This document shows positions 4,144 to 20,650 of a stretch of 40,395 bases of DNA, one piece after another. The notes under the pieces were generated by a model. The model had not been told where the DNA came from. It was given only the letters and a program-made list of their open reading frames with translations, and ran no database searches. Source of the DNA: a virus (taxonomy: Duplodnaviria > Heunggongvirae > Uroviricota > Caudoviricetes); the IMG/VR virus record IMGVR_UViG_3300026488_000017, positions 1 to 40,395 of that record. One strand, given 5' to 3'. Position 1 is the stretch's first letter. Each line of letters begins with the position of its first letter. The translations under genes and the position numbers were made by a program.

Positions 4144-4559
4144 TAGTCATCTCCTAGTAAGTCGGCGTACTTACCTAATTTTTTCTTATTTGCTTTCTTT
4201 GCTAGTTTTTCTTCTGCTTTATCGAATAATTTAGCAATAGATGAATCTCGTACATACTCTCTCGGAAGGTTATTATGATTATTTGGTATGGTTATATCAG
4301 CACCTGCTTCCAATAATATACCAATCATAGTAGCTAATCTTTTAAAAGTAGCCATCCATAATGTAGTTTCATTTCTTTTATTCACTACATTAATATCGAT
4401 ACCTAATTCTATGAATAATCTAACTTTTCTTGAATCACCACTTAGTACAGCAAGATGCAAAAGACTCTCACCTTTTGAGTCCAACTGGCTCAAATTGATT
4501 TCGCCTGATGCTATCTTTGCTTTTAGTTCTATTATGTTATTTTTGATAACGACATTCAT
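4143..4559 (-). CDS. Ankyrin-repeat protein ending in KLGKYADLLGDD
   Basis: GESLLHLAVLSG, GIDINVVNKRNETTLWMA, GADITIPN. Confidence 0.92.
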   Translation of the reverse strand: MNVVIKNNIIELKAKIASGEINLSQLDSKGESLLHLAVLSGDSRKVRLFIELGIDINVVNKRNETTLWMATFKRLATMIGILLEAGADITIPNNHNNLPREYVRDSSIAKLFDKAEEKLAKKANKKKLGKYADLLGDD

Positions 4560-12996: not shown

Positions 12997-13488
12997 TTAA
13001 ACATCAAGTAAATCAGCGTATTTACCCAATTTCTTTTTTGAATTAACTTCTTTCAATACTTGTTTAGCCATTTTACTTAATCCGCCGTACATACTCGATT
13101 TAGAAAACTTTTCTCTAGCTTTCTCATTCTTACTAAGAACATATAAAATAATCTTCTTAGTTTCTTTACTAAGCTTCTTATAAGACTCCATTATGCCGAA
13201 TGCTGTTTGTAGTGAAAAAATTATAGTATCATCATCTGAATAAACACTCTTAATATCCATAAGAATTTTGATAGCTTCAAAATTACCTAGCTTCATAGCT
13301 TGACCGAAAATATAGTTGCTGTCTTGTGAAATATTGTACTTCAGTTTGATAACCTTTTCAAGTGATTTATCGTGACCGAATTCTATGATTTCTGCTATTC
13401 TATCTTTATGTAGCTTATTAATATCATTTGACATAGCATCAATAAATTCCATTACTTGTTTTGGTGAAGCTTTATTATCTATTGCCAT
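12997..13488 (-). CDS. Degenerate ankyrin-like helical protein ending in KLGKYADLLDV
   Basis: QAMKLGNFEAIKILMD; shared tag. Confidence 0.75.
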   Translation of the reverse strand: MAIDNKASPKQVMEFIDAMSNDINKLHKDRIAEIIEFGHDKSLEKVIKLKYNISQDSNYIFGQAMKLGNFEAIKILMDIKSVYSDDDTIIFSLQTAFGIMESYKKLSKETKKIILYVLSKNEKAREKFSKSSMYGGLSKMAKQVLKEVNSKKKLGKYADLLDV

Positions 13489-13961
13489 TATAATACTCCT
13501 AGCAAATCTGCATATTTACCTAATTTTGAATTCTGTAATGCATCTAAAACTTTACCTTTAGCATACTGATACATTTCTTTATCTATTTTAGCACCCAATT
13601 TTAGAAGAGCTTTAACATATTTCTCTTTACCTGATGTAATAGCATAATCTAATGCTGCCATATCTCGTTTATTTTTGATATTAACATCAAGGTCTTTTCT
13701 CTTTACAATAATATCAAACATAGCTTCATTATCATCTAATATTATTCTGATTAGGATTGTAGTCCCTATTGGGTTCTTCTCATTTGGGTTTGTTCTTTTG
13801 TCTTTCATAATTACTTTGAAGTTTTCTAATAAATCTTCTCTAACGATGTGACTTAATAAGACCTTATTTTTAGATGGGTCATTATTCTTCAGCCATTTTT
13901 TAAGTATAGAAGTGTCTCCTTCTCTTAGTCTTTGGTGGAATAATCCTGGTTCTTCATTCAT
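13488..13961 (-). CDS. Ankyrin-repeat protein ending in KLGKYADLLGVL
   Basis: LDVNIKNKRDMAALDYAITSG...LLKLGA. Confidence 0.88.
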   Translation of the reverse strand: MNEEPGLFHQRLREGDTSILKKWLKNNDPSKNKVLLSHIVREDLLENFKVIMKDKRTNPNEKNPIGTTILIRIILDDNEAMFDIIVKRKDLDVNIKNKRDMAALDYAITSGKEKYVKALLKLGAKIDKEMYQYAKGKVLDALQNSKLGKYADLLGVL

Positions 13962-14398
13962 TACGACTCTCCTAGTAAATCTGCATACTTACCTAATTTT
14001 TTGTTTAATAATTTTTTTACGATGTGTTTTGCACTGTCAAGCCTTTTAAGAACTTTTTTGTTCTTTGCTAAGATTTCTACTACTTTAATATGACCTTTAT
14101 CGGCAGCATCGTTTGCTGCTTCTATAATATCATTTATGTCTTTAGGTACTGAAGAATTCATAAATATTTCAATGATTTCGTGATACCCTTTGACTGCTGC
14201 TACCCAAAAGTGCATACTAGCAAAAGAACCACCATTATCCAAAATTAATTGAGCTAATTTCGTGTAACCTAGCTTAACGGCTACACCCATCATTGTATCA
14301 TTACCAAAACGAATATCTTCAGCATTGTTGATAATGTCATCAGTCATTTTGATTAAATCTTTTTCGGATTTTTTCATTAGTGTTTGTGTTATACCCAT
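13961..14398 (-). CDS. Ankyrin-repeat protein ending in KLGKYADLLGES
   Basis: AVKLGYTKLAQLILDNG, AAVKGYHEII, AADKGHIKVVEIL. Confidence 0.85.
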   Translation of the reverse strand: MGITQTLMKKSEKDLIKMTDDIINNAEDIRFGNDTMMGVAVKLGYTKLAQLILDNGGSFASMHFWVAAVKGYHEIIEIFMNSSVPKDINDIIEAANDAADKGHIKVVEILAKNKKVLKRLDSAKHIVKKLLNKKLGKYADLLGES

Positions 14399-14913
14399 TA
14401 GTCATCTCCCAATAAGCTAGCATATTTACCAATCTTGGCTATACCTTTTAGATAATCAGATATTTTATTAGGGCTTCTGTAATCAAAAATTCCCATACCT
14501 TTTTTATCTTTATGGTGAATATCTGCACCGTTAGCTATTAACAGCTTAGTTATATCAATACAATTCATATTCACAGCAGCGAATAATGCTGTTGAACCAT
14601 TTTTATCTTGCTTATCAACATTAGCACCAGCTTTAAGGAGAGCTTTAGCTATGTCGAGTGAACCTGCTTGTGCACACCACATAAGAGGCGTGTTACCAAT
14701 ATCATCTGCTACATCTACATTAGCACCATTCTTTATTAGTACCTTAGCTATCGTAGCGAGACCCTCATACGATGCTAAGATAAGCGGTGTCCAGTTATCT
14801 TCATCGGGGTATTTCTTGTTTATATCTTTAGCTTTGATTTTTTCTAGGTGTTTGAGTAATCCCATATCTTCTGAAAATACAGCATTATACCAACATTCTG
14901 CAGGTTCAACCAT
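14398..14913 (-). CDS. Ankyrin-repeat protein ending in KIGKYASLLGDD (true start MVEPAE at 14913, not 15027)
   Basis: WTPLILASYEG, GNTPLMWCAQAG, GSTALFAA; GGAG RBS and late promoter lie inside the track's N-terminal extension. Confidence 0.92.
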   Translation of the reverse strand: MVEPAECWYNAVFSEDMGLLKHLEKIKAKDINKKYPDEDNWTPLILASYEGLATIAKVLIKNGANVDVADDIGNTPLMWCAQAGSLDIAKALLKAGANVDKQDKNGSTALFAAVNMNCIDITKLLIANGADIHHKDKKGMGIFDYRSPNKISDYLKGIAKIGKYASLLGDD

Positions 14914-14936
14914 AATGAATCTCCGTTGTTTATCAG

Positions 14937-14944
14937 TATTTATA
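14937..14944 (-). promoter_or_regulatory. T4-type late promoter TATAAATA
   Basis: Exact match upstream of the second ankyrin operon. Confidence 0.75.
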
Positions 14945-14949
14945 TTTTT

Positions 14950-14993
14950 GTGTGATTGTGTGATTGTGTGATTGATTGTGTGATTGATTGTGA
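14950..14993. repeat. Short tandem repeat of TGTGATTG/ATTG units
   Basis: tgtgattg tgtgattg tgtgattg attg tgtgattg attg tga. Confidence 0.85.
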
Positions 14994-14995
14994 AG

Positions 14996-15066
14996 TGGAA
15001 CCCCTGGAAGTAATCGAAACTTCTCAAACGGCTTCGAAGGCCATTGTCTCATCCTCGAGCAGGGGC
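14996..15066 (-). tRNA. tRNA-Arg(TCG), atypical (reduced D arm, U53:A61)
   Basis: Acceptor GCCCCTG/CAGGGGT, loop CT-TCG-AA, T arm GAAGT-TTCGATT-ACTTC, encoded CCA. Confidence 0.7.
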
Positions 15067-15073
15067 ATATAAG

Positions 15074-15148
15074 TGGTGGGCCATCGAGGAGTTGAACCTC
15101 GGTTTCATCCTTATGAGGGAAGAGCACTAACCGTTGTACTAATGGCCT
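15074..15148 (-). tRNA. tRNA(CAT), probably Ile2 (lysidine type) or Met
   Basis: Loop CT-CAT-AA, C4-G69/C5-G68 pairs, A73, CCA; 1:72 mismatch. Confidence 0.8.
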
Positions 15149-15151
15149 ATT

Positions 15152-15225
15152 TGGAACTCTGTAACGGAATCGAACCGTTCATCGAAGATTTGCAATCTCC
15201 TGCCTTACCAATTGGCTAACAGAGC
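15152..15225 (-). tRNA. tRNA-Cys(GCA)
   Basis: Canonical cloverleaf, U73, CCA. Confidence 0.93.
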
Positions 15226-15357
15226 ATATTGGTTCCAGATTTATTTTTACCCGCCAAACTGGAGGCGATTTGAGCTTCTTTTAGACTGTACAATCTTGAA
15301 ATTCACTAAAGAGTCATTGAATATTGTGCACATACAAAAATTCCCTTATAATAAATT

Positions 15358-15537
15358 CTATTCTACATAGACTATATCTGTTTCATTCATTACGAAATAA
15401 CAACCATCAATTTCTCGACCTGTACTGTCATCTTCTTTGATGCATTTACATATCTTTGGATAATCATAATTTATATGAATGTCTCCGTAAACTTCAAACT
15501 CTTCTCCAATTTCTAAATCTTTAAAGTTCTTATCCAT
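15358..15537 (-). CDS. Hypothetical 59-aa protein (MDKNFKDLEIGEEFEVYG...), below ORF-track cutoff
   Basis: Hand-translated; AAGGA RBS. Confidence 0.65.
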   Translation of the reverse strand: MDKNFKDLEIGEEFEVYGDIHINYDYPKICKCIKEDDSTGREIDGCYFVMNETDIVYVE

Positions 15538-15553
15538 TTTTATTCCTTTTATT

Positions 15554-15628
15554 TGGTGCGTCTGATAGGATTCGAACCTACAGATTTGGGTTTCTAAAAC
15601 CGTTGCCTCACCGCTGGGCTACAAACGC
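15554..15628 (-). tRNA. tRNA with TAG anticodon (Leu) but short variable loop and imperfect anticodon stem
   Basis: Acceptor GCGTTTG/CAGACGC, loop TT-TAG-AA, canonical T arm, A73-CCA. Confidence 0.65.
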
Positions 15629-15640
15629 ATCCTTGAATTT

Positions 15641-15820
15641 TTATACTTGTTCCCAAGTCATTGGATATTTAATCCCTGGGTTGAATTCTCTTTGATAGTT
15701 CATAATCTCATAATTTCTACCAACTACTGTTGTTTCAATCATTGTATATGTTACATTATCTTTTTCTTTTGTAAATATTTCTGTATATTTACCTTTATCT
15801 CTTTTTTGTTCATCTTTCAT
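15641..15820 (-). CDS. Hypothetical 59-aa protein (probable start MKDEQK)
   Basis: AGGA RBS; start overlaps the HNH stop. Confidence 0.55.
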   Translation of the reverse strand: MKDEQKRDKGKYTEIFTKEKDNVTYTMIETTVVGRNYEIMNYQREFNPGIKYPMTWEQV

Positions 15821-16520
15821 TATCTTTCCTATTTGTTGTCTTACCGTTAAATCTAGGTTGTATAAGCATTTCATATCTTTTACAATTATATCTTTTCAGA
15901 ATATTTGTGAGTTTTGATGAATAGTATTCTTCATAAAATCCTTCTCTCAACATTTCTGCTATTGATTCAAATTTATTATCTTCTAAAGTATCTAATACTC
16001 TATTGACAAATTCAGTTTTTTCTTTTATATTAGTTTGTTTCTCCAAAAGTCTCTGTTCTCTATCACTTTCTTTTTTTGATTTACCAAACTTCATTTTACG
16101 ACCTTTCAACCAACCTTCGGGTATCTCACCTTTAGGTACTTTCTTTGACTCTTTTAGTTCTAAGTTATGAATCCACATAGTACCAAACTGTGAATTTCCT
16201 TCACCAGTTTGACTGCGACTCATTTCTTCACTAAACTTCTCTCTCAACCAACCGTACATACGATTCATTGACCTATCTTGACCCGTTCCTATAACACACA
16301 TCATACTTACAGCCTTTATAAGACTATATTTACCTGGATATATCTTTAGTAGCAGTATATGAGCAATAAAGTGTTCTCTTGCAGTTAATTCTACAAGATT
16401 TTCTTTATCATCTGTGCCATTCATACTTCTAGGTACTATATGGTGTATTTCTTTATAACAATCTAGCTTTCTATTTTTACCTCTTAGAATGAGTTTTTCA
16501 TAGTGCAATTTATAATTCAT
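15810..16520 (-). mobile_element. Free-standing HNH homing endonuclease gene inside the tRNA array
   Basis: EIHHIVPRSMNGTDDKENLVELTAREHFIAH; own late promoter TATAAATA at 16549-16556. Confidence 0.88.
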
Positions 16521-16587
16521 TGTATATCTCCAAAAGTCTATATACTACTATTTATAAGTTTACTTTTTACTTTTACATTTTAAGTTT

Positions 16588-16672
16588 TGGTGCACCTACT
16601 CGGATTCGAACCGAGACTCCCGAAGGAAATGAGTTTTAAGCCCACAGCGTCTACCAGTTTCGCCATAAGTGC
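16588..16672 (-). tRNA. tRNA-Leu(TAA)
   Basis: Type II cloverleaf, loop CT-TAA-AA, A73-CCA. Confidence 0.95.
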
Positions 16673-16684
16673 ATATTTTATAAA

Positions 16685-16769
16685 TGGAGGAGAATGTGGG
16701 AATCGAACCCACTACTGTTTTACCAGCCAGAAATTAGCAATCTCTTTACCTACCTTAGGTGTATTCTCC
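16685..16769 (-). tRNA. tRNA-Ser(GCT)
   Basis: Long variable arm, loop TT-GCT-AA, short D loop, U73-CCA. Confidence 0.88.
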
Positions 16770-16774
16770 AAATT

Positions 16775-16858
16775 TGGTGTCGCTGATAGGATTCGAACCT
16801 ACATAAGCTTGCGCCACGAGTTAGAAGCTCGTTTCTCATCCAGTTGAGGCACAACGAC
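16775..16858 (-). tRNA. tRNA-Arg(TCT) with an unusual long variable arm
   Basis: Loop CT-TCT-AA, A20, 13-nt variable region GGCGCAAGCTTAT, A73-CCA. Confidence 0.85.
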
Positions 16859-16863
16859 ATATT

Positions 16864-16939
16864 TGGGGCGAAATCTGGGAATCGAACCCAGCTACTCAGG
16901 TTCACAACCCGAGACTTTAACCGATAAGATAATCACGCC
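16864..16939 (-). tRNA. tRNA-His(GTG)
   Basis: Encoded G-1:C73, loop TT-GTG-AA, CCA. Confidence 0.92.
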
Positions 16940-16945
16940 ATATTT

Positions 16946-17018
16946 TGGTTGCTCTGAAGGTATTCGAAACCTTTTCAGTAAGTTATGAGCCTACCGTCCA
17001 AACCTTATGGTCAGAGCA
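16946..17018 (-). tRNA. tRNA(CAT), atypical (reduced D arm, U53:A61), Met- or Ile2-type
   Basis: Acceptor TGCTCTG/CAGAGCA, loop CT-CAT-AA, T arm AAGGT-TTCGAAT-ACCTT, CCA. Confidence 0.7.
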
Positions 17019-17025
17019 TTGTTTG

Positions 17026-17064
17026 TTTATTTTAGTGTCTTCATTGACATCGGATTTCTTGCCC
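17026..17064 (-). promoter_or_regulatory. Conserved post-terminator element, copy 1 (GGGCAAGAAATCCG-A-TGTCAATGAAGACACTAAAATAAA)
   Basis: 14-nt and 24-nt blocks identical to 19032-19075. Confidence 0.85.
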
Positions 17065-17102
17065 AAAAAAAAGGGAGTCAATTCAATTAAGAACTGACTC
17101 CC
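17065..17102 (-). terminator. Intrinsic terminator of attenuator 1
   Basis: 12-bp stem GGGAGTCAGTTC/GAATTGACTCCC, 6-nt loop, U8 tail. Confidence 0.92.
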
Positions 17103-17134
17103 TTTGAGGAAAACTTTTATTTAAGTTCTCTTCA

Positions 17135-17221
17135 TCAGAAATCAGTTCCACTACGGCTCAGCATCAGGCTATGTCTTAATATACTACATAATATTGTTAA
17201 GTTATTTAATGCTGTTCTCAT
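17135..17221 (-). CDS. Leader peptide 1, MRTALNNLTILCSILRHSLMLSRSGTDF (28 aa)
   Basis: GAGGA RBS; early (17296-17317) and late (17248-17255) promoters upstream; codons match the downstream tRNA anticodons. Confidence 0.85.
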   Translation of the reverse strand: MRTALNNLTILCSILRHSLMLSRSGTDF

Positions 17222-17345
17222 AATGTTTCCTCTGTTTAATTTTATTGTATTTATAAGAGTCAAAAACTCTATATACTATCTCTCTTTATGTATGTATTAT
17301 AACATAAAGATACTTAATTTTCTCTTAATACTCAAAAAAGATTTA

Positions 17346-17810
17346 CTATTTTGAATATCTGTCGGCTGCACAACTTGCAGCCCAAGCATTTGGTTTACAA
17401 ACAGGCTCGATGCCTACCATTCCCCATATCATACCTTTTGCTGCTCCGTGAGCAACATTTGAACCAGTTCCTTCGACAGGATTTACATCTAAGTGAATCT
17501 CGAAGTCTTTGTCCATTAAAACATCTTCTAGTTGATTATAAAGTTCTGTAACAAGTTGTACTTCTTTCATCATCCGATTAAATGGTCTACCAAGGTTTGT
17601 ATCTTTTACATCTTGATATTGTACATCTGTAAAGATTTTAGCACCTTTACCTATACCATTTTCATCGTGAAAGTGTATAATAACTACTGTCGCAAATTTA
17701 ACTCTTTTTTTCTTCATTCGTTGTGAATCGACCCCAAGATAAATCCTAGCGTCTTCATTTTTGTTTATAAAGTTCTTAATGAACTCAACTTCTTCTTTAC
17801 TGTGTGCCAT
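17346..17810 (-). CDS. RNase H-like protein, YkuK/DUF458 family
   Basis: IYLGVDSQ, FATVVIIH, EIHLDVN, KPNAWAASCAAD. Confidence 0.85.
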   Translation of the reverse strand: MAHSKEEVEFIKNFINKNEDARIYLGVDSQRMKKKRVKFATVVIIHFHDENGIGKGAKIFTDVQYQDVKDTNLGRPFNRMMKEVQLVTELYNQLEDVLMDKDFEIHLDVNPVEGTGSNVAHGAAKGMIWGMVGIEPVCKPNAWAASCAADRYSK

Positions 17811-17863
17811 ATAAGTTCTCCTTTAATAATAAATTAAACACTCTCTGAATGCTTAATAAGTCA

Positions 17864-18022
17864 TTAAGACTTAATCGTTCTTACTAATTCAAGTACTTCT
17901 TCTTTCGTTGCTAATCTACAAGCATTTGATTCAGTTACATAATTTTGATAACCTCGTTCATTTACAGAAAAAATAACTTTTGTTGCTTTGTTAATAATCA
18001 AAGCAGGAAATATAATCTTCAT
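17864..18022 (-). CDS. Hypothetical 52-aa protein (MKIIFPALIINKATK...)
   Basis: Hand-translated; AAGGA RBS. Confidence 0.55.
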   Translation of the reverse strand: MKIIFPALIINKATKVIFSVNERGYQNYVTESNACRLATKEEVLELVRTIKS

Positions 18023-18297
18023 TTTTATCCTTTATGTCGAGACCGTTGTCCCTTTGTAGGTTTCTAATACCATCCAGGCTATTGTGCTTTGAACTCATTA
18101 CTGAATACACAAATTGTTTTCTTCCTAGCTTACATCAAGCCAAATCGAGGTAATACTACTCTGTACTTCTGTATCTACAATAAATTGTAGTGTATCTATT
18201 CATAACTTAGGGTTCCATACCATAGAGTCTTTAAGAGGTTGAAACTATCTCTGTCTTGTAGTATTATGGTTATTATATCTATTTTTTACTTAATTTT

Positions 18298-18372
18298 TGG
18301 TACTCGATGAAAGAATCGAACTTTCTACCATTTCTAAGTCAAAGAAACACTCTACCATTGAGTTAATCGAGC
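18298..18372 (-). tRNA. tRNA-Val(GAC)
   Basis: Canonical stems, loop TT-GAC-TT (unusual U37), A73-CCA. Confidence 0.88.
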
Positions 18373-18375
18373 ATA

Positions 18376-18450
18376 TGGAGCGAAAAATGGGCATCGAACC
18401 CACAACCTTCTGATTGGCAACCAGATGCTCTACCATTGAGCTACTTTCGC
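18376..18450 (-). tRNA. tRNA-Gly(GCC)
   Basis: Canonical cloverleaf, U73-CCA. Confidence 0.95.
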
Positions 18451-18456
18451 ATATTT

Positions 18457-18530
18457 TGGAGCGGGTACGGAGAATTGAACTCCGGTCTTCTGGTTGGAAA
18501 CCAGTGGCTCTACCATTGAGCTACACCCGC
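18457..18530 (-). tRNA. tRNA-Gly(TCC)
   Basis: Canonical cloverleaf, U73-CCA. Confidence 0.95.
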
Positions 18531-18543
18531 ATATTCTAACATT

Positions 18544-18676
18544 TGGAGCGAATAGAAGGATTTGAACCTTCAAAATATTTTTAGTATCAGTTTAGTTTTC
18601 CTAGTACTCTCTTAATCAGGCTAACCCATTTTTCTTAGTACTAATAAACCGTGTTTACCAGTTTCACCATATTCGC
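18544..18676 (-). ncRNA. 133-nt tRNA-like RNA with a 50-nt insert in place of the anticodon loop
   Basis: Intact acceptor GCGAATA/TATTCGC, D arm, variable arm, T arm and CCA; anticodon stem GTTTA/TAAAC encloses 50 nt. Confidence 0.8.
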
Positions 18677-18681
18677 ATTTT

Positions 18682-18756
18682 TGGTACTCGATGAAGGAAT
18701 CGAACCTTCTACCTACTCCGTGTAAAGGAGGTGTTCTACCAGTGAACTAATCGAGC
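18682..18756 (-). tRNA. tRNA-Val(TAC)
   Basis: Canonical cloverleaf, A73-CCA. Confidence 0.94.
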
Positions 18757-18770
18757 ATATTTTCTATCTT

Positions 18771-18844
18771 TGGCAGGCGTACGGTGAATCGAACACCGGG
18801 CAAAGGATTTGGAATCCCTTATTTTACCACTAAACTATACACCT
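18771..18844 (-). tRNA. tRNA-Trp(CCA)
   Basis: Loop TT-CCA-AA, G73-CCA. Confidence 0.93.
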
Positions 18845-18848
18845 ATAA

Positions 18849-18932
18849 TGGAGGACCCTAGAGTAATCGAAACCCATAGTTTAACCTATCCATCGGGTTC
18901 AAACCGACTTTGCTACCTCAGCGGTAGAGTCC
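18849..18932 (-). tRNA. Atypical tRNA-Ser(TGA), possible 8/4 acceptor/T-stem fold
   Basis: GGACTCTA/TAGGGTCC 8 bp, T stem GGGT/ACTC 4 bp, loop TT-TGA-AC, variable hairpin ATAG/CTAT. Confidence 0.7.
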
Positions 18933-18939
18933 ATATTTT

Positions 18940-19027
18940 TGGAGGATGATGTGAGACTCGAACTCACAACGCTTTTGACACGCAATGGCTTTCAAAACCA
19001 CCTGACTCCCATACTGTCGAATCATCC
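18940..19027 (-). tRNA. tRNA-Ser(TGA)
   Basis: Type II cloverleaf, loop TT-TGA-AA, U73-CCA. Confidence 0.9.
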
Positions 19028-19031
19028 ATCT

Positions 19032-19075
19032 TTTATTTTAGTGTCTTCATTGACAACCTCACGGATTTCTTGCCC
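19032..19075 (-). promoter_or_regulatory. Conserved post-terminator element, copy 2 (GGGCAAGAAATCCG-TGAGGT-TGTCAATGAAGACACTAAAATAAA)
   Basis: Identical blocks to 17026-17064. Confidence 0.85.
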
Positions 19076-19112
19076 AAAAAAAAGGGATTGAATTCAAAAT
19101 GAACCCAATCCC
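19076..19112 (-). terminator. Intrinsic terminator of attenuator 2
   Basis: 12-bp stem GGGATTGGGTTC/GAATTCAATCCC, 5-nt loop, U8 tail. Confidence 0.92.
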
Positions 19113-19137
19113 TTAATAAACTATTGTTTATTAAAAA

Positions 19138-19248
19138 TCAGGTTACGAGCATCCCCACCGACCATAGGCCAGCGAATACACTAGCAGAAACTACGGATTC
19201 ACTTGTATGCGATAATGTATCTATTAAGACTAAGTTTAATTTTGTCAT
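19138..19248 (-). CDS. Leader peptide 2, MTKLNLVLIDTLSHTSESVVSASVFAGLWSVGMLVT (36 aa)
   Basis: AGGAG RBS; early (19278-19299) and late (19327-19334) promoters upstream; rich in Ser(TCN)/Val/Gly/Trp codons matching the downstream array. Confidence 0.85.
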   Translation of the reverse strand: MTKLNLVLIDTLSHTSESVVSASVFAGLWSVGMLVT

Positions 19249-19381
19249 TGTGTTTCTCCTATTTGTTTTTATGTGTAATTATATCGTAAAGTTACTTAAT
19301 TTCTACTTAACTTCTTAATATGTCTATATTTATAACACATTATATAAGCTTCCTAAAAAGTCTATATACTATGTTAAATCA

Positions 19382-19739
19382 TGGTGGAGATAGGGAGAAT
19401 TGAACTCCCGTCCTAAAAAACTCTTTCATCAAGTCATACAAGTTTATGTGAGTATTAATTTTATACTGTGCTCTCAAGCCCATTTGTTGATGCCATTTAC
19501 TGAAAGACTCATTCAGGTTCTCTATTTACAGATAGATAAACTCCTCCGTGCTATGTGCACTTCAAAAAACGATGTCCATTTTGGTAACCAAGCTGTGACT
19601 CACTTGGAACGATTATGCTACTAGAGCACCTTCGTAAGTGTATGTATTTGTGTTAGCATTTACAATTTGGTTGTTTTTAAGTTTTACATAACTACTTGTC
19701 TTCGAATCAGATATAATCCAGTCTAAACCGATTATCCCC
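19382..19739 (-). ncRNA. ssrA: tmRNA; tag (A)ANTNTYTYEGALVA encoded at 19613-19657
   Basis: GGGGATA/TATCTCC-A-CCA acceptor with G3:U70, T arm, TAAAT-GCT resume context, tag ORF ending in LVA-stop. Confidence 0.93.
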
Positions 19740-19954
19740 TTTTTGTTTGTTACAGTACTATTATATCTAAAAGTTACTTAATTTTTACTTAAAAGTAACT
19801 TAGATTTTCTAATTCCCGCAACCACTTTTCATAAGTTGAGTCTTATTCCCGCTTTAAGGACTTTTTGAATACCCGAACTATCCTAAAGGATGAGCCTGTT
19901 ATGTACCATTCACAACATTATATTAGGGTATGTGTTATTTATAGGCTATATAGC

Positions 19955-20650
19955 CTATTTTGAAGAGATAACTACTGCTAGTCCATCTACATCTTGTGAT
20001 TCAAATAAACTAATAAGTGAACCTTTATTTGACTTGAAAACACTTACATTATATGAAGTGTTTGGAAGTTTTGATAAGTTACTCATAACGATTTTTAACT
20101 GAACTTCACTATTAACAACACCATTGAACTTAATAGCAATGTTATTTGAAGATTTCTCTTTACCTTGTGCAGTTAAAGTAATAACATCACTCTCATCTTT
20201 AGCACAGTCGATACTTAAATCAGTTAAATCTTTAAGGACACCTGAAACTTTCTTCAGTTTATCAAGTTCTCCAGCTGGTAACTCAAAAGTTGCTACTAAT
20301 TCGTTTGTCTTAATACGGTCAACCATATCAAGTTTAGTCCTAGCTTCTTCCTCAATTAGAGAAATGTTTGTCGTAGCATAACGAATATTTGAATTATCGT
20401 TACTAATAGTAAGAATACCACTAGTTAAATCAATATCAGCATCTTCGCCAATAACGCCGATTGTACTAAGTAATTCAGGTATATTAAAGATACCAAATTC
20501 CTCGAACGATGCTTCACCTAGTTTTTCAAGATTGAAGAAGGCCTGTATGTTATTCCCCATTTTGATTCCAGTTACTGGATATGTTATAATGGCCTGTGTG
20601 TTGATTGCACTTAAAGCACTAAGTACATTTTTTGTATTTTTGTTTAGCAT
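19955..20650 (-). CDS. gp45: Sliding clamp, T4 gp45-like
   Basis: Size 231 aa; N-terminus LNKNTKNVLSALSAIN, FGIFNIPELLS, SNLSKLPNTSYNV segments resemble gp45. Confidence 0.75.
   Translation of the reverse strand: MLNKNTKNVLSALSAINTQAIITYPVTGIKMGNNIQAFFNLEKLGEASFEEFGIFNIPELLSTIGVIGEDADIDLTSGILTISNDNSNIRYATTNISLIEEEARTKLDMVDRIKTNELVATFELPAGELDKLKKVSGVLKDLTDLSIDCAKDESDVITLTAQGKEKSSNNIAIKFNGVVNSEVQLKIVMSNLSKLPNTSYNVSVFKSNKGSLISLFESQDVDGLAVVISSK

Follow-up and report, generated by a model that had tools for sequence, protein, structure and literature searches.

Codon-matched leader modules as candidate transcription attenuators of two phage tRNA arrays

Phage transfer RNAs (tRNAs) counter tRNA-cleaving defences and aid the translation of phage codons. 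We asked what controls the tRNA arrays of the IMG/VR virus record IMGVR_UViG_3300026488_000017, in which a short open reading frame (ORF) and an intrinsic terminator stand ahead of the first array. The window, i.e., the whole stretch of DNA analysed (40,395 nucleotides), covers the first 40 kb of a virus contig of 105 kb with 33% G+C that originates from a hydrothermal-vent metagenome. Two arrays hold every tRNA gene of the contig, together with a phage transfer-messenger RNA (tmRNA; 19739-19382). A preliminary description of the window had assigned the geometry of trp/his/ilv-type attenuation to the leader of array 1; this geometry was supported in silico, and the pattern was repeated in a diverged second module ahead of array 2. 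We consider it rather probable that both modules are multivalent leader-peptide transcription attenuators that sense the supply of their own tRNA products. Each tRNA set would probably be made only when ribosomes decode its codons slowly.

Two leader modules and the codons of their ORFs

All genes of the tRNA region lie on the minus strand, as do the parts of the modules given here. Module 1 starts with promoter 1 (17296..17320), in which a ATTAAGTA box lies approximately 10 nt 5′ of TATAAT (17301-17296). Leader ORF 1 (17221-17135) comprises 28 codons and a stop and encodes the peptide MRTALNNLTILCSILRHSLMLSRSGTDF; it is preceded by the Shine–Dalgarno (SD) sequence AGAGGA (17233-17228). The ORF and its good ribosome-binding site (RBS) were present as previously reported, with GAGGA placed 6 nt 5′ of the ATG. 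Segment 2 (GGAACUGAUUUCU, 17137..17149) comprises the final four codons plus the first stop-codon base and forms the 5′ strand of the antiterminator, whose helix encloses an inner hairpin (17105..17134). The strong U8 terminator described ahead of array 1 was likewise present: terminator 1 (17065..17105) consists of a hairpin of 15 pairs, 6 of which are G-C (17105-17070), and a T8 tract (17072-17065), and its arms are segment 3 (17102-17090) and segment 4 (17084-17073). The post-terminator block of module 1 (17026..17064; GGGCAAGAAATCCG ... TGTCAATGAAGACACTAAAATAAA) contains the palindrome TGTC-AATGAA-GACA. Array 1 (14996..17018) opens with the tRNAs CAT, His GTG, Arg TCT, Ser GCT and Leu TAA and continues, past an HNH ORF and small ORFs, with Leu TAG, Cys GCA, Met CAT and a marginal Arg TCG. 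ARAGORN called seven tRNAs in this array, namely His GTG, Arg TCT, Ser GCT, Leu TAA, Leu TAG, Cys GCA and Met CAT.

A paralogous module precedes array 2 and has the same order of parts, i.e., promoter, SD and ORF, segment 2 at the stop, inner hairpin, terminator with U8, block and tRNAs. Promoter 2 (19278..19302) belongs to the same class as promoter 1 and aligns with it. The SD sequence AGGAG (19260-19256) lies ahead of leader ORF 2 (19248-19138), which has 36 codons and a stop; among its codons 18-35, 11 encode Ser (as TCN), Val, Gly or Trp. Segment 2 of this module (G.AACCUGAUUU, 19135..19146) includes the stop codon and is followed by the inner hairpin (19134-19113) and by terminator 2 (19114-19082), which has 15 pairs and a T8 tract (19083-19076). 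The block of module 1 recurs at 19030..19075 with a 5-6-nt insert. Array 2 (18298..19027) contains Ser TGA, a degenerate remnant that resembles Ser TGA, Trp CCA, Val TAC, a tRNA-like gene whose anticodon arm carries a 61-nt insert, Gly TCC, Gly GCC and Val GAC.

In both modules, the distance from promoter to ORF is 20-70 nt, the SD motifs (GAGGA and AGGAG) lie 6-7 nt before the ATG and the terminators are located 45-55 nt 5′ of the first tRNA. The promoters and the post-terminator blocks are near-identical between the modules, whereas the terminator stems have diverged, as have the leaders beyond the first ~15 residues, over which their peptides can be aligned. The post-terminator sequence common to both consists of blocks of 14 nt and 24 nt with a palindrome of the form TGTC-N6-GACA, and the 105-kb contig contains only these two copies of it. 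In addition, the 5′ untranslated region (UTR) of leader 1 has an insert (17247..17277) with a AGTATATAGAGTTTT motif, a small hairpin and TATAAATA, which module 2 lacks. A scan of the whole contig for strong intrinsic terminators (stem of at least 8 pairs, at most one mismatch, T6 or more) returned exactly two in 105 kb, and these were terminators 1 and 2.

We then compared the codons of the leaders with the anticodons of the arrays. The codon sets were derived from the anticodons, either by ordinary wobble (strict set) or with four-box superwobble in addition (loose set), and 102 long ORFs provided the background of codon usage. Leader 1 contained 17-18 array-1-cognate codons among 27, compared with 19-22% in the long ORFs (p ~5e-7). 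Leader 2 contained 11-13 array-2-cognate codons among 35, compared with the expected 16-18% (p 0.016-0.005). Leader 1 contained a single array-2 codon, and the Fisher 2×2 test of leader by array yielded p values of 0.002-0.0008.

A G-rich hairpin in leader 2 could alone favour Gly, Val and Trp codons; therefore, we used composition-controlled shuffles, in which each leader was shuffled with its dinucleotides kept and the frame was required to be open. Leader 1 had 18 cognate codons as against 10.9 ± 2.5 in the shuffles (P 0.0034), and leader 2 had 13 as against 8.1 ± 1.9 (P 0.0086). The match of each leader to the other array was not enriched in these shuffles (P 0.95 and 0.73). Codons 10-24 of leader 1 read exactly as the preliminary description had listed them, and the chance of this run, for which an estimate had been called for, was low: a run of 15 cognate codons occurred in none of the shuffles of leader 1 (0/5000). 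Among 287 small six-frame ORFs of the genome, leader 1 ranked first or second by fraction and was the sole ORF with a run of 15, and leader 2 was within the top 6.

The match also extended to the division of the tRNAs between the arrays. When the 12 anticodon groups were divided in all 495 possible 8+4 splits, the real split showed the best fit to both leaders. Leader 1 samples 8/8 anticodon classes of array 1 (P 5.6e-4; 1/1023 windows of real genes), and leader 2 samples 6/6 anticodon classes of array 2 (P 0.027). That is, each leader is written in the codons of its own array and samples all of its anticodon classes; therefore, the signal would be the supply of the array's tRNAs. When the peptide was held constant, the choice among synonymous codons in leader 1 was also biased toward the array (P 0.0014): the four Ser codons were all AGY, as had been claimed (4/4; 34% expected), and both Ile codons were ATA (2/2; 32% expected). 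Leader 2 was enriched in codons that are rare in the phage (9/35 vs 7.4%, p 8e-4), and 7 of these 9 are cognate to array 2.

Alternative pairing in the leader RNAs

The full-length leaders folded with the terminator, at z values of -5.9 (module 1) and -3.6 (module 2). We defined the nascent state as the leader cut just before the 3′ arm of the terminator (segment 4), which is the decision point. In the minimum-energy fold of the nascent state, segment 3 paired with segment 2 around the inner hairpin in both modules. The antiterminator of module 1 comprised 13 pairs (-28.5 kcal/mol for the 3′ part): GGAACUGAUUUC (17149-17138) and GGAGUCAGUUCU formed 12/12 pairs, to which one extra U-G pair was added. 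The preliminary description had put forward both the 12/12 pairing of the last codons with the 5′ arm of the terminator and the hairpin inside this helix, and both were recovered in the nascent fold. In module 2, the antiterminator helix stacked on the inner hairpin, with an energy of -16.4 kcal/mol.

The complementarity was assessed as the pairing gain of the 5′ arm of the terminator with the upstream 75 nt, compared with dinucleotide shuffles. The gain was -19.5 kcal/mol in module 1, as against -6.1 ± 2.6 in the shuffles (0/1000 shuffles), and -11.0 in module 2, as against -4.2 ± 2.3 (8/1000 shuffles).

Folds were also computed under ribosome-footprint constraints. A ribosome at the stop codon resulted in the terminator in both modules. 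With the A site at codons 8-20, 9-13 of the 11-13 bases of segment 3 paired with segment 2, i.e., the antiterminator was formed. The contrast between a ribosome at the stop and a stalled ribosome thus agreed with what had been anticipated for module 1. In module 1, a stall at codon 24 or later (≥24) covered segment 2. In module 2, the antiterminator was obtained again at codons 28 and 31, and codon 24 was an exception.

Divergence between the modules has left both pairings intact. Segment 3 differs between them at three columns (G/U, C/G and A/G), at which the pairs with segment 2 changed from U-G to A-U, from G-C to U-G and from U-A to C-G. The pairing with segment 4 is also kept at the three columns, and zero pairs were lost. 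Both ORFs terminate at segment 2, although one has 28 codons and the other 36 and although their reading frames through the homologous CUGAUUU differ. This shared end, reached in spite of the differences in length and frame, points to selection on the position of the translation stop rather than on the peptide.

Genomic setting and relatives

The 25-nt promoter motif occurs in at least 11 minus-strand copies in the contig, each shortly 5′ of an RBS and ATG or of the tmRNA. Because of this recurrence before genes and the tmRNA, the ATTAAGTA/TATAAT class is a real promoter type of the phage. No phage-class promoter was found between the terminator and the tRNAs in either module. A sigma-70 or phage-class promoter within the post-terminator block was considered and rejected owing to a poor -35 element, wrong spacing and the lack of another copy in the genome. 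Another phage-class promoter (18296-18272, minus strand) is followed by approximately 250 nt (to 18023) without a convincing ORF. A structured noncoding RNA at 18030-18265 was rejected, as its fold was no better than those of shuffles (z +0.69) and it had no Rfam match.

The tmRNA (19382-19739, minus strand) scored 86 bits, encodes the tag ANTNTYTYEGALVA and has its own phage-class promoter (19784-19760); it lies directly 5′ of module 2, and tmRNA adjoins the tRNA arrays in relatives too. The motif AGTATATAGA(C/G)TTTT has three copies in the window (0.04 expected), all confined to the tRNA region and on the minus strand: before the HNH gene (16532-16546), in the 5′ UTR of leader 1 (17263-17277) and after the tmRNA (19356-19370). 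A TATA-rich stretch comes after each copy, and the motif may serve as a late promoter, as a processing site or as the target of a homing endonuclease.

Array 1 is split by an HNH homing-endonuclease gene (15810-16520, minus strand; PHROG 655), and further small ORFs lie among its tRNAs (15874-15641 and 15537-15358). Leader 1 is adjoined by a gene for an RNase H-like protein of 154 aa with the domain PF04308 (17346-17810, minus strand), which may be a tRNA-processing or tRNA-repair enzyme. In array 2, the tRNA-like gene at 18547-18676 (minus strand) has good acceptor, D and T arms (Rfam 43 bits). We assigned no anticodon to it because the 61-nt insert replaces the anticodon arm; an ARAGORN intron model, Phe(AAA) with a 43-nt intron, was doubtful. 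Between tRNA-Ser and tRNA-Trp, a degenerate second Ser(TGA)-like sequence (18849-18932, minus strand) was detected by ARAGORN under relaxed settings only and had no Rfam match; it is probably a decayed duplicate. Beyond array 1, a short perfect tandem repeat (14948-14992; periods 8 and 12, with CACAAT/CA units) separates the last tRNA-like gene from the gene that follows, and three successive ORFs (13488-14912, minus strand) share the C-terminal (L/I)GKYA(D/S)LLG.

The UvsW-like helicase of the contig showed 33-35% identity to its counterparts in T4-like Campylobacter phages, and a sliding clamp gene is also present on the contig; the contig therefore belongs to a distant, uncultured T4-like phage. 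Using the PF04308 neighbour as an anchor, we obtained 21 loci at 32-86% identity, of which the relatives at 58-86% were from IMG/VR and JGI metagenomes. This gene adjoins tRNA arrays in most relatives with sufficient flanking DNA, and the arrays are rearranged; the closest relative (locus L006, 86%) has no tRNAs nearby. Queries with the sliding clamp and UvsW returned no IMG/VR relatives.

Sequence searches for the module itself yielded little. The homing endonuclease was the sole match in a blastn search of the region against GenBank phages, and a comparison of the module by BLAST with the complete records of four relatives yielded only short matches at chance level (best E 0.02). Exact-pattern scans for the post-terminator block had 0 matches in IMG/VR and 14 in GTDB; the latter were in unrelated bacteria, six of them Xenorhabdus, where ~4 are expected by chance for the 19-mer. 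No variant copies of the module were present among the contigs of the source run. Rfam searches of 14000-20500 at E up to 1 detected neither a T-box nor amino-acid leader families (Trp, His, Leu, Thr); a T-box or other known riboswitch was therefore rejected, and the module appears to be an analogue rather than a homologue of the Rfam leader families. Neither leader peptide has a family in Pfam or PHROGs.

Explanations and known systems

If the leaders are translated and ribosomes are coupled to RNA polymerase in the host, attenuation would proceed as follows. The phage promoter would start transcription, and a ribosome would load the mini-ORF as RNA polymerase advances. With fast decoding, the ribosome would reach the stop and cover segment 2, the terminator would form and the array would be off. 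With a stall at cognate codons (~10-20 in leader 1 and 18-31 in leader 2), segment 2 would be free; it would pair with segment 3, and the polymerase would read through into the tRNA genes. The expected outcome is demand-driven expression with negative feedback by the product of the array. The array would also be on when host tRNAs of the same classes run short, for which phage codon demand, host shut-off, starvation and tRNA-cleaving defences are possible causes. The preliminary description had proposed that the switch is triggered when the host pool is depleted, for example through starvation or an anticodon nuclease. This may be the case, and negative feedback exerted by the phage's own tRNAs is no less likely as the trigger.

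The same parts can be explained in other ways. Each ORF and terminator may be a stand-alone small gene or small RNA with an insulating terminator, the arrays being driven from an unrecognised promoter or protein-dependent site in the block, so that the codon match and the pairing are by-products. The block has stayed identical although the leaders diverged, it carries TAAAAT 7-12 nt before the first tRNA as well as the palindrome, the arrays of relatives operate without such a module, and the C-terminal half of leader 2 is hydrophobic and could be a membrane peptide. However, the block resembles neither a sigma-70 promoter nor the phage promoter class and occurs nowhere else in 105 kb, and the leader peptides have no family match. 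An insulating terminator also leaves unaccounted for the enrichment of own-array codons (P 0.0034, 0.0086), the coverage of the anticodon classes (5.6e-4, 0.027), the partition (1/495), the complementarity of the antiterminator (0/1000, 8/1000 shuffles) and the presence of strong terminators at only two of >100 genes. We regard this explanation as unlikely, although it is the strongest of the alternatives.

The structural evidence would be the same if the modules were translation-coupled switches that sense general translation capacity or ribosome-polymerase coupling, the identity of the codons being irrelevant. Such a switch would fit the antiterminator in ribosome-free nascent RNA, by which a global failure of translation would turn both arrays on, as well as the lack of significance in the synonymous test of leader 2. 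The leaders nevertheless match their own array and not the other, which is needless for a general sensor, and leader 1 matches at the synonymous level (P 0.0014); a general sensor is therefore less likely still. We consider it quite improbable that a trans-acting phage protein or RNA acting on the leader or block, or processive antitermination, makes the decision and that the ORFs are incidental. The palindrome within the invariant block and the ability of AGAAAUC of the block to pair with segment 2 speak for such a factor. However, the block is 3′ of the U tract and would be made too late for the termination decision, no known RNA element, T-box included, was found at E up to 1, and both ORFs have a good SD and are open for 28 and 36 codons, whereas ~7% of random codons are stops at 33% GC.

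Attenuation by the leader peptides, the explanation we prefer, also has to accommodate several points that weigh against it. The terminator state is the more stable one at equilibrium, by 4.7 kcal/mol in module 1 and by 10.7 kcal/mol in module 2; therefore, as in attenuators already known, the choice would have to be made kinetically. A 1:2 anti-antiterminator or pause hairpin is absent from both modules, the ORF-internal hairpin of module 1 excludes segment 2, and the ribosome-free nascent RNA adopts the antiterminator. As segment 2 is not sequestered by a 1:2 hairpin, read-through would be expected when the leader is not translated. The model also presumes transcription-translation coupling in the host of an uncultured phage.

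The claim that all 15 consecutive codons of leader 1 can be read by array 1 includes two marginal predictions among the nine tRNAs of the array. The first CAT tRNA (17018-16949) scores 29.4 bits in Rfam, where the cut-off is 29, and the Arg TCG tRNA (15066-14999), at 27.5 bits, is below the cut-off of 29 and was detected by ARAGORN under relaxed settings only. In addition, the reading of ATA by the CAT tRNA assumes lysidine, and that of CGT by TCG assumes U34 superwobble. In leader 2, the synonymous choice with the peptide fixed was not significant (P 0.67), and part of the match falls in the G-rich hairpin that favours Gly, Val and Trp codons. The identical post-terminator block could harbour an unrecognised promoter or protein site. 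None of the 21 anchored loci had the module or a terminator ahead of its arrays, and this absence from the fetched relatives suggests a recent, lineage-specific acquisition or invention; the comparison thus rests on two paralogs within one genome and not on independent lineages. The source DNA run was the only sequencing run to contain the sequence, and no RNA run contained it. Taken together, the support for attenuation is computational, including the replicate within the genome, and the dependence of read-through on translation and tRNA supply is that predicted by the model.

The tRNA clusters of T4, T5 and phiCbK-like phages supplement or replace host tRNAs and evade tRNA-cleaving defences (PMC3556154; PMC11555353; PMC11464382). 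Homing endonucleases sit within these clusters, as one does within array 1. The papers on phage tRNA clusters that were searched describe no leader-peptide attenuator, the phiCbK genome paper (PMC3556154) mentions none, and a full-text literature search yielded no account of attenuation acting on tRNA genes of phages.

We inspected a phiCbK locus (L041, NC_019405 47000-52800; local coordinates are given). At 4290-4500, a TTGACA-type promoter, a 32-codon ORF (4343-4441) and an 11-pair terminator (4472-4497) are followed by a Phe/Val/Ile/Gln/Gly tRNA block. The 32-codon leader holds a near-copy of the 3′ arm of the terminator, and its amino-acid match is modest (12/31 residues, with all five amino acids present). 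A second promoter, with a short ORF and a terminator, lies at 1045-1170 ahead of a Glu/Asp tRNA pair. This succession of promoter, ORF and terminator before tRNA genes suggests that the architecture recurs in an unrelated and cultivable phage, so that phiCbK offers an experimental system for it. Whether large phages in general control their tRNA supply array by array, through leader 'test messages' that spell the anticodon content and, judging from phiCbK, evolved convergently, is a proposal on which we are evenly divided.

If the proposal is true, such test messages would give feedback by the product and an automatic response to a defence or starvation that removes particular tRNAs. Attenuation in the two modules would show that a duplicated leader can be retuned to another set of tRNAs, and it would provide a compact and programmable means of sensing how fast chosen codons are decoded. 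Control by leader-peptide attenuation is known for amino-acid genes, and we found no description of it for tRNA genes; if the modules are attenuators, they would be the first known to sense the very molecules that the regulated genes encode.

The closest parallels are the leader-peptide attenuators of enterobacterial amino-acid operons (PMC1183508). Similar to these, both modules have a mini-ORF with regulatory codons close to the promoter and an intrinsic terminator, one strand of which also takes part in an antiterminator; as in trp, ~70 nt separate the stop codon from the terminator's end. Some known leaders are multivalent, i.e., ilvL of ilvGMEDA (Ile/Val/Leu) and thrL of thr (Thr/Ile), and others sense a single amino acid (trpL, hisL, leuL and pheL). 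As in ilvL and thrL, one leader here would sense several codon types; however, 6-8 anticodon classes are sampled once or a few times each, in place of runs of a single codon. Unlike trp and his, the modules have no 1:2 anti-antiterminator. They are also phage-borne, occur in two copies tuned to two arrays and show no sequence homology to the enterobacterial attenuators. Moreover, the regulated genes are tRNAs and not enzymes, so the sensed molecule would be their direct product.

The T-box resembles the modules in that a terminator/antiterminator switch is tied to a specific tRNA through a codon-like specifier; it differs in that it binds uncharged tRNA directly, without a ribosome or ORF, and controls synthetase and amino-acid genes. 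A component of the translation apparatus is controlled by the supply of charged tRNA in the E. coli pheST attenuator (pheM leader). That attenuator is chromosomal, senses a single amino acid and controls a synthetase, whereas the modules described here are carried by a phage and would control the tRNA genes themselves.

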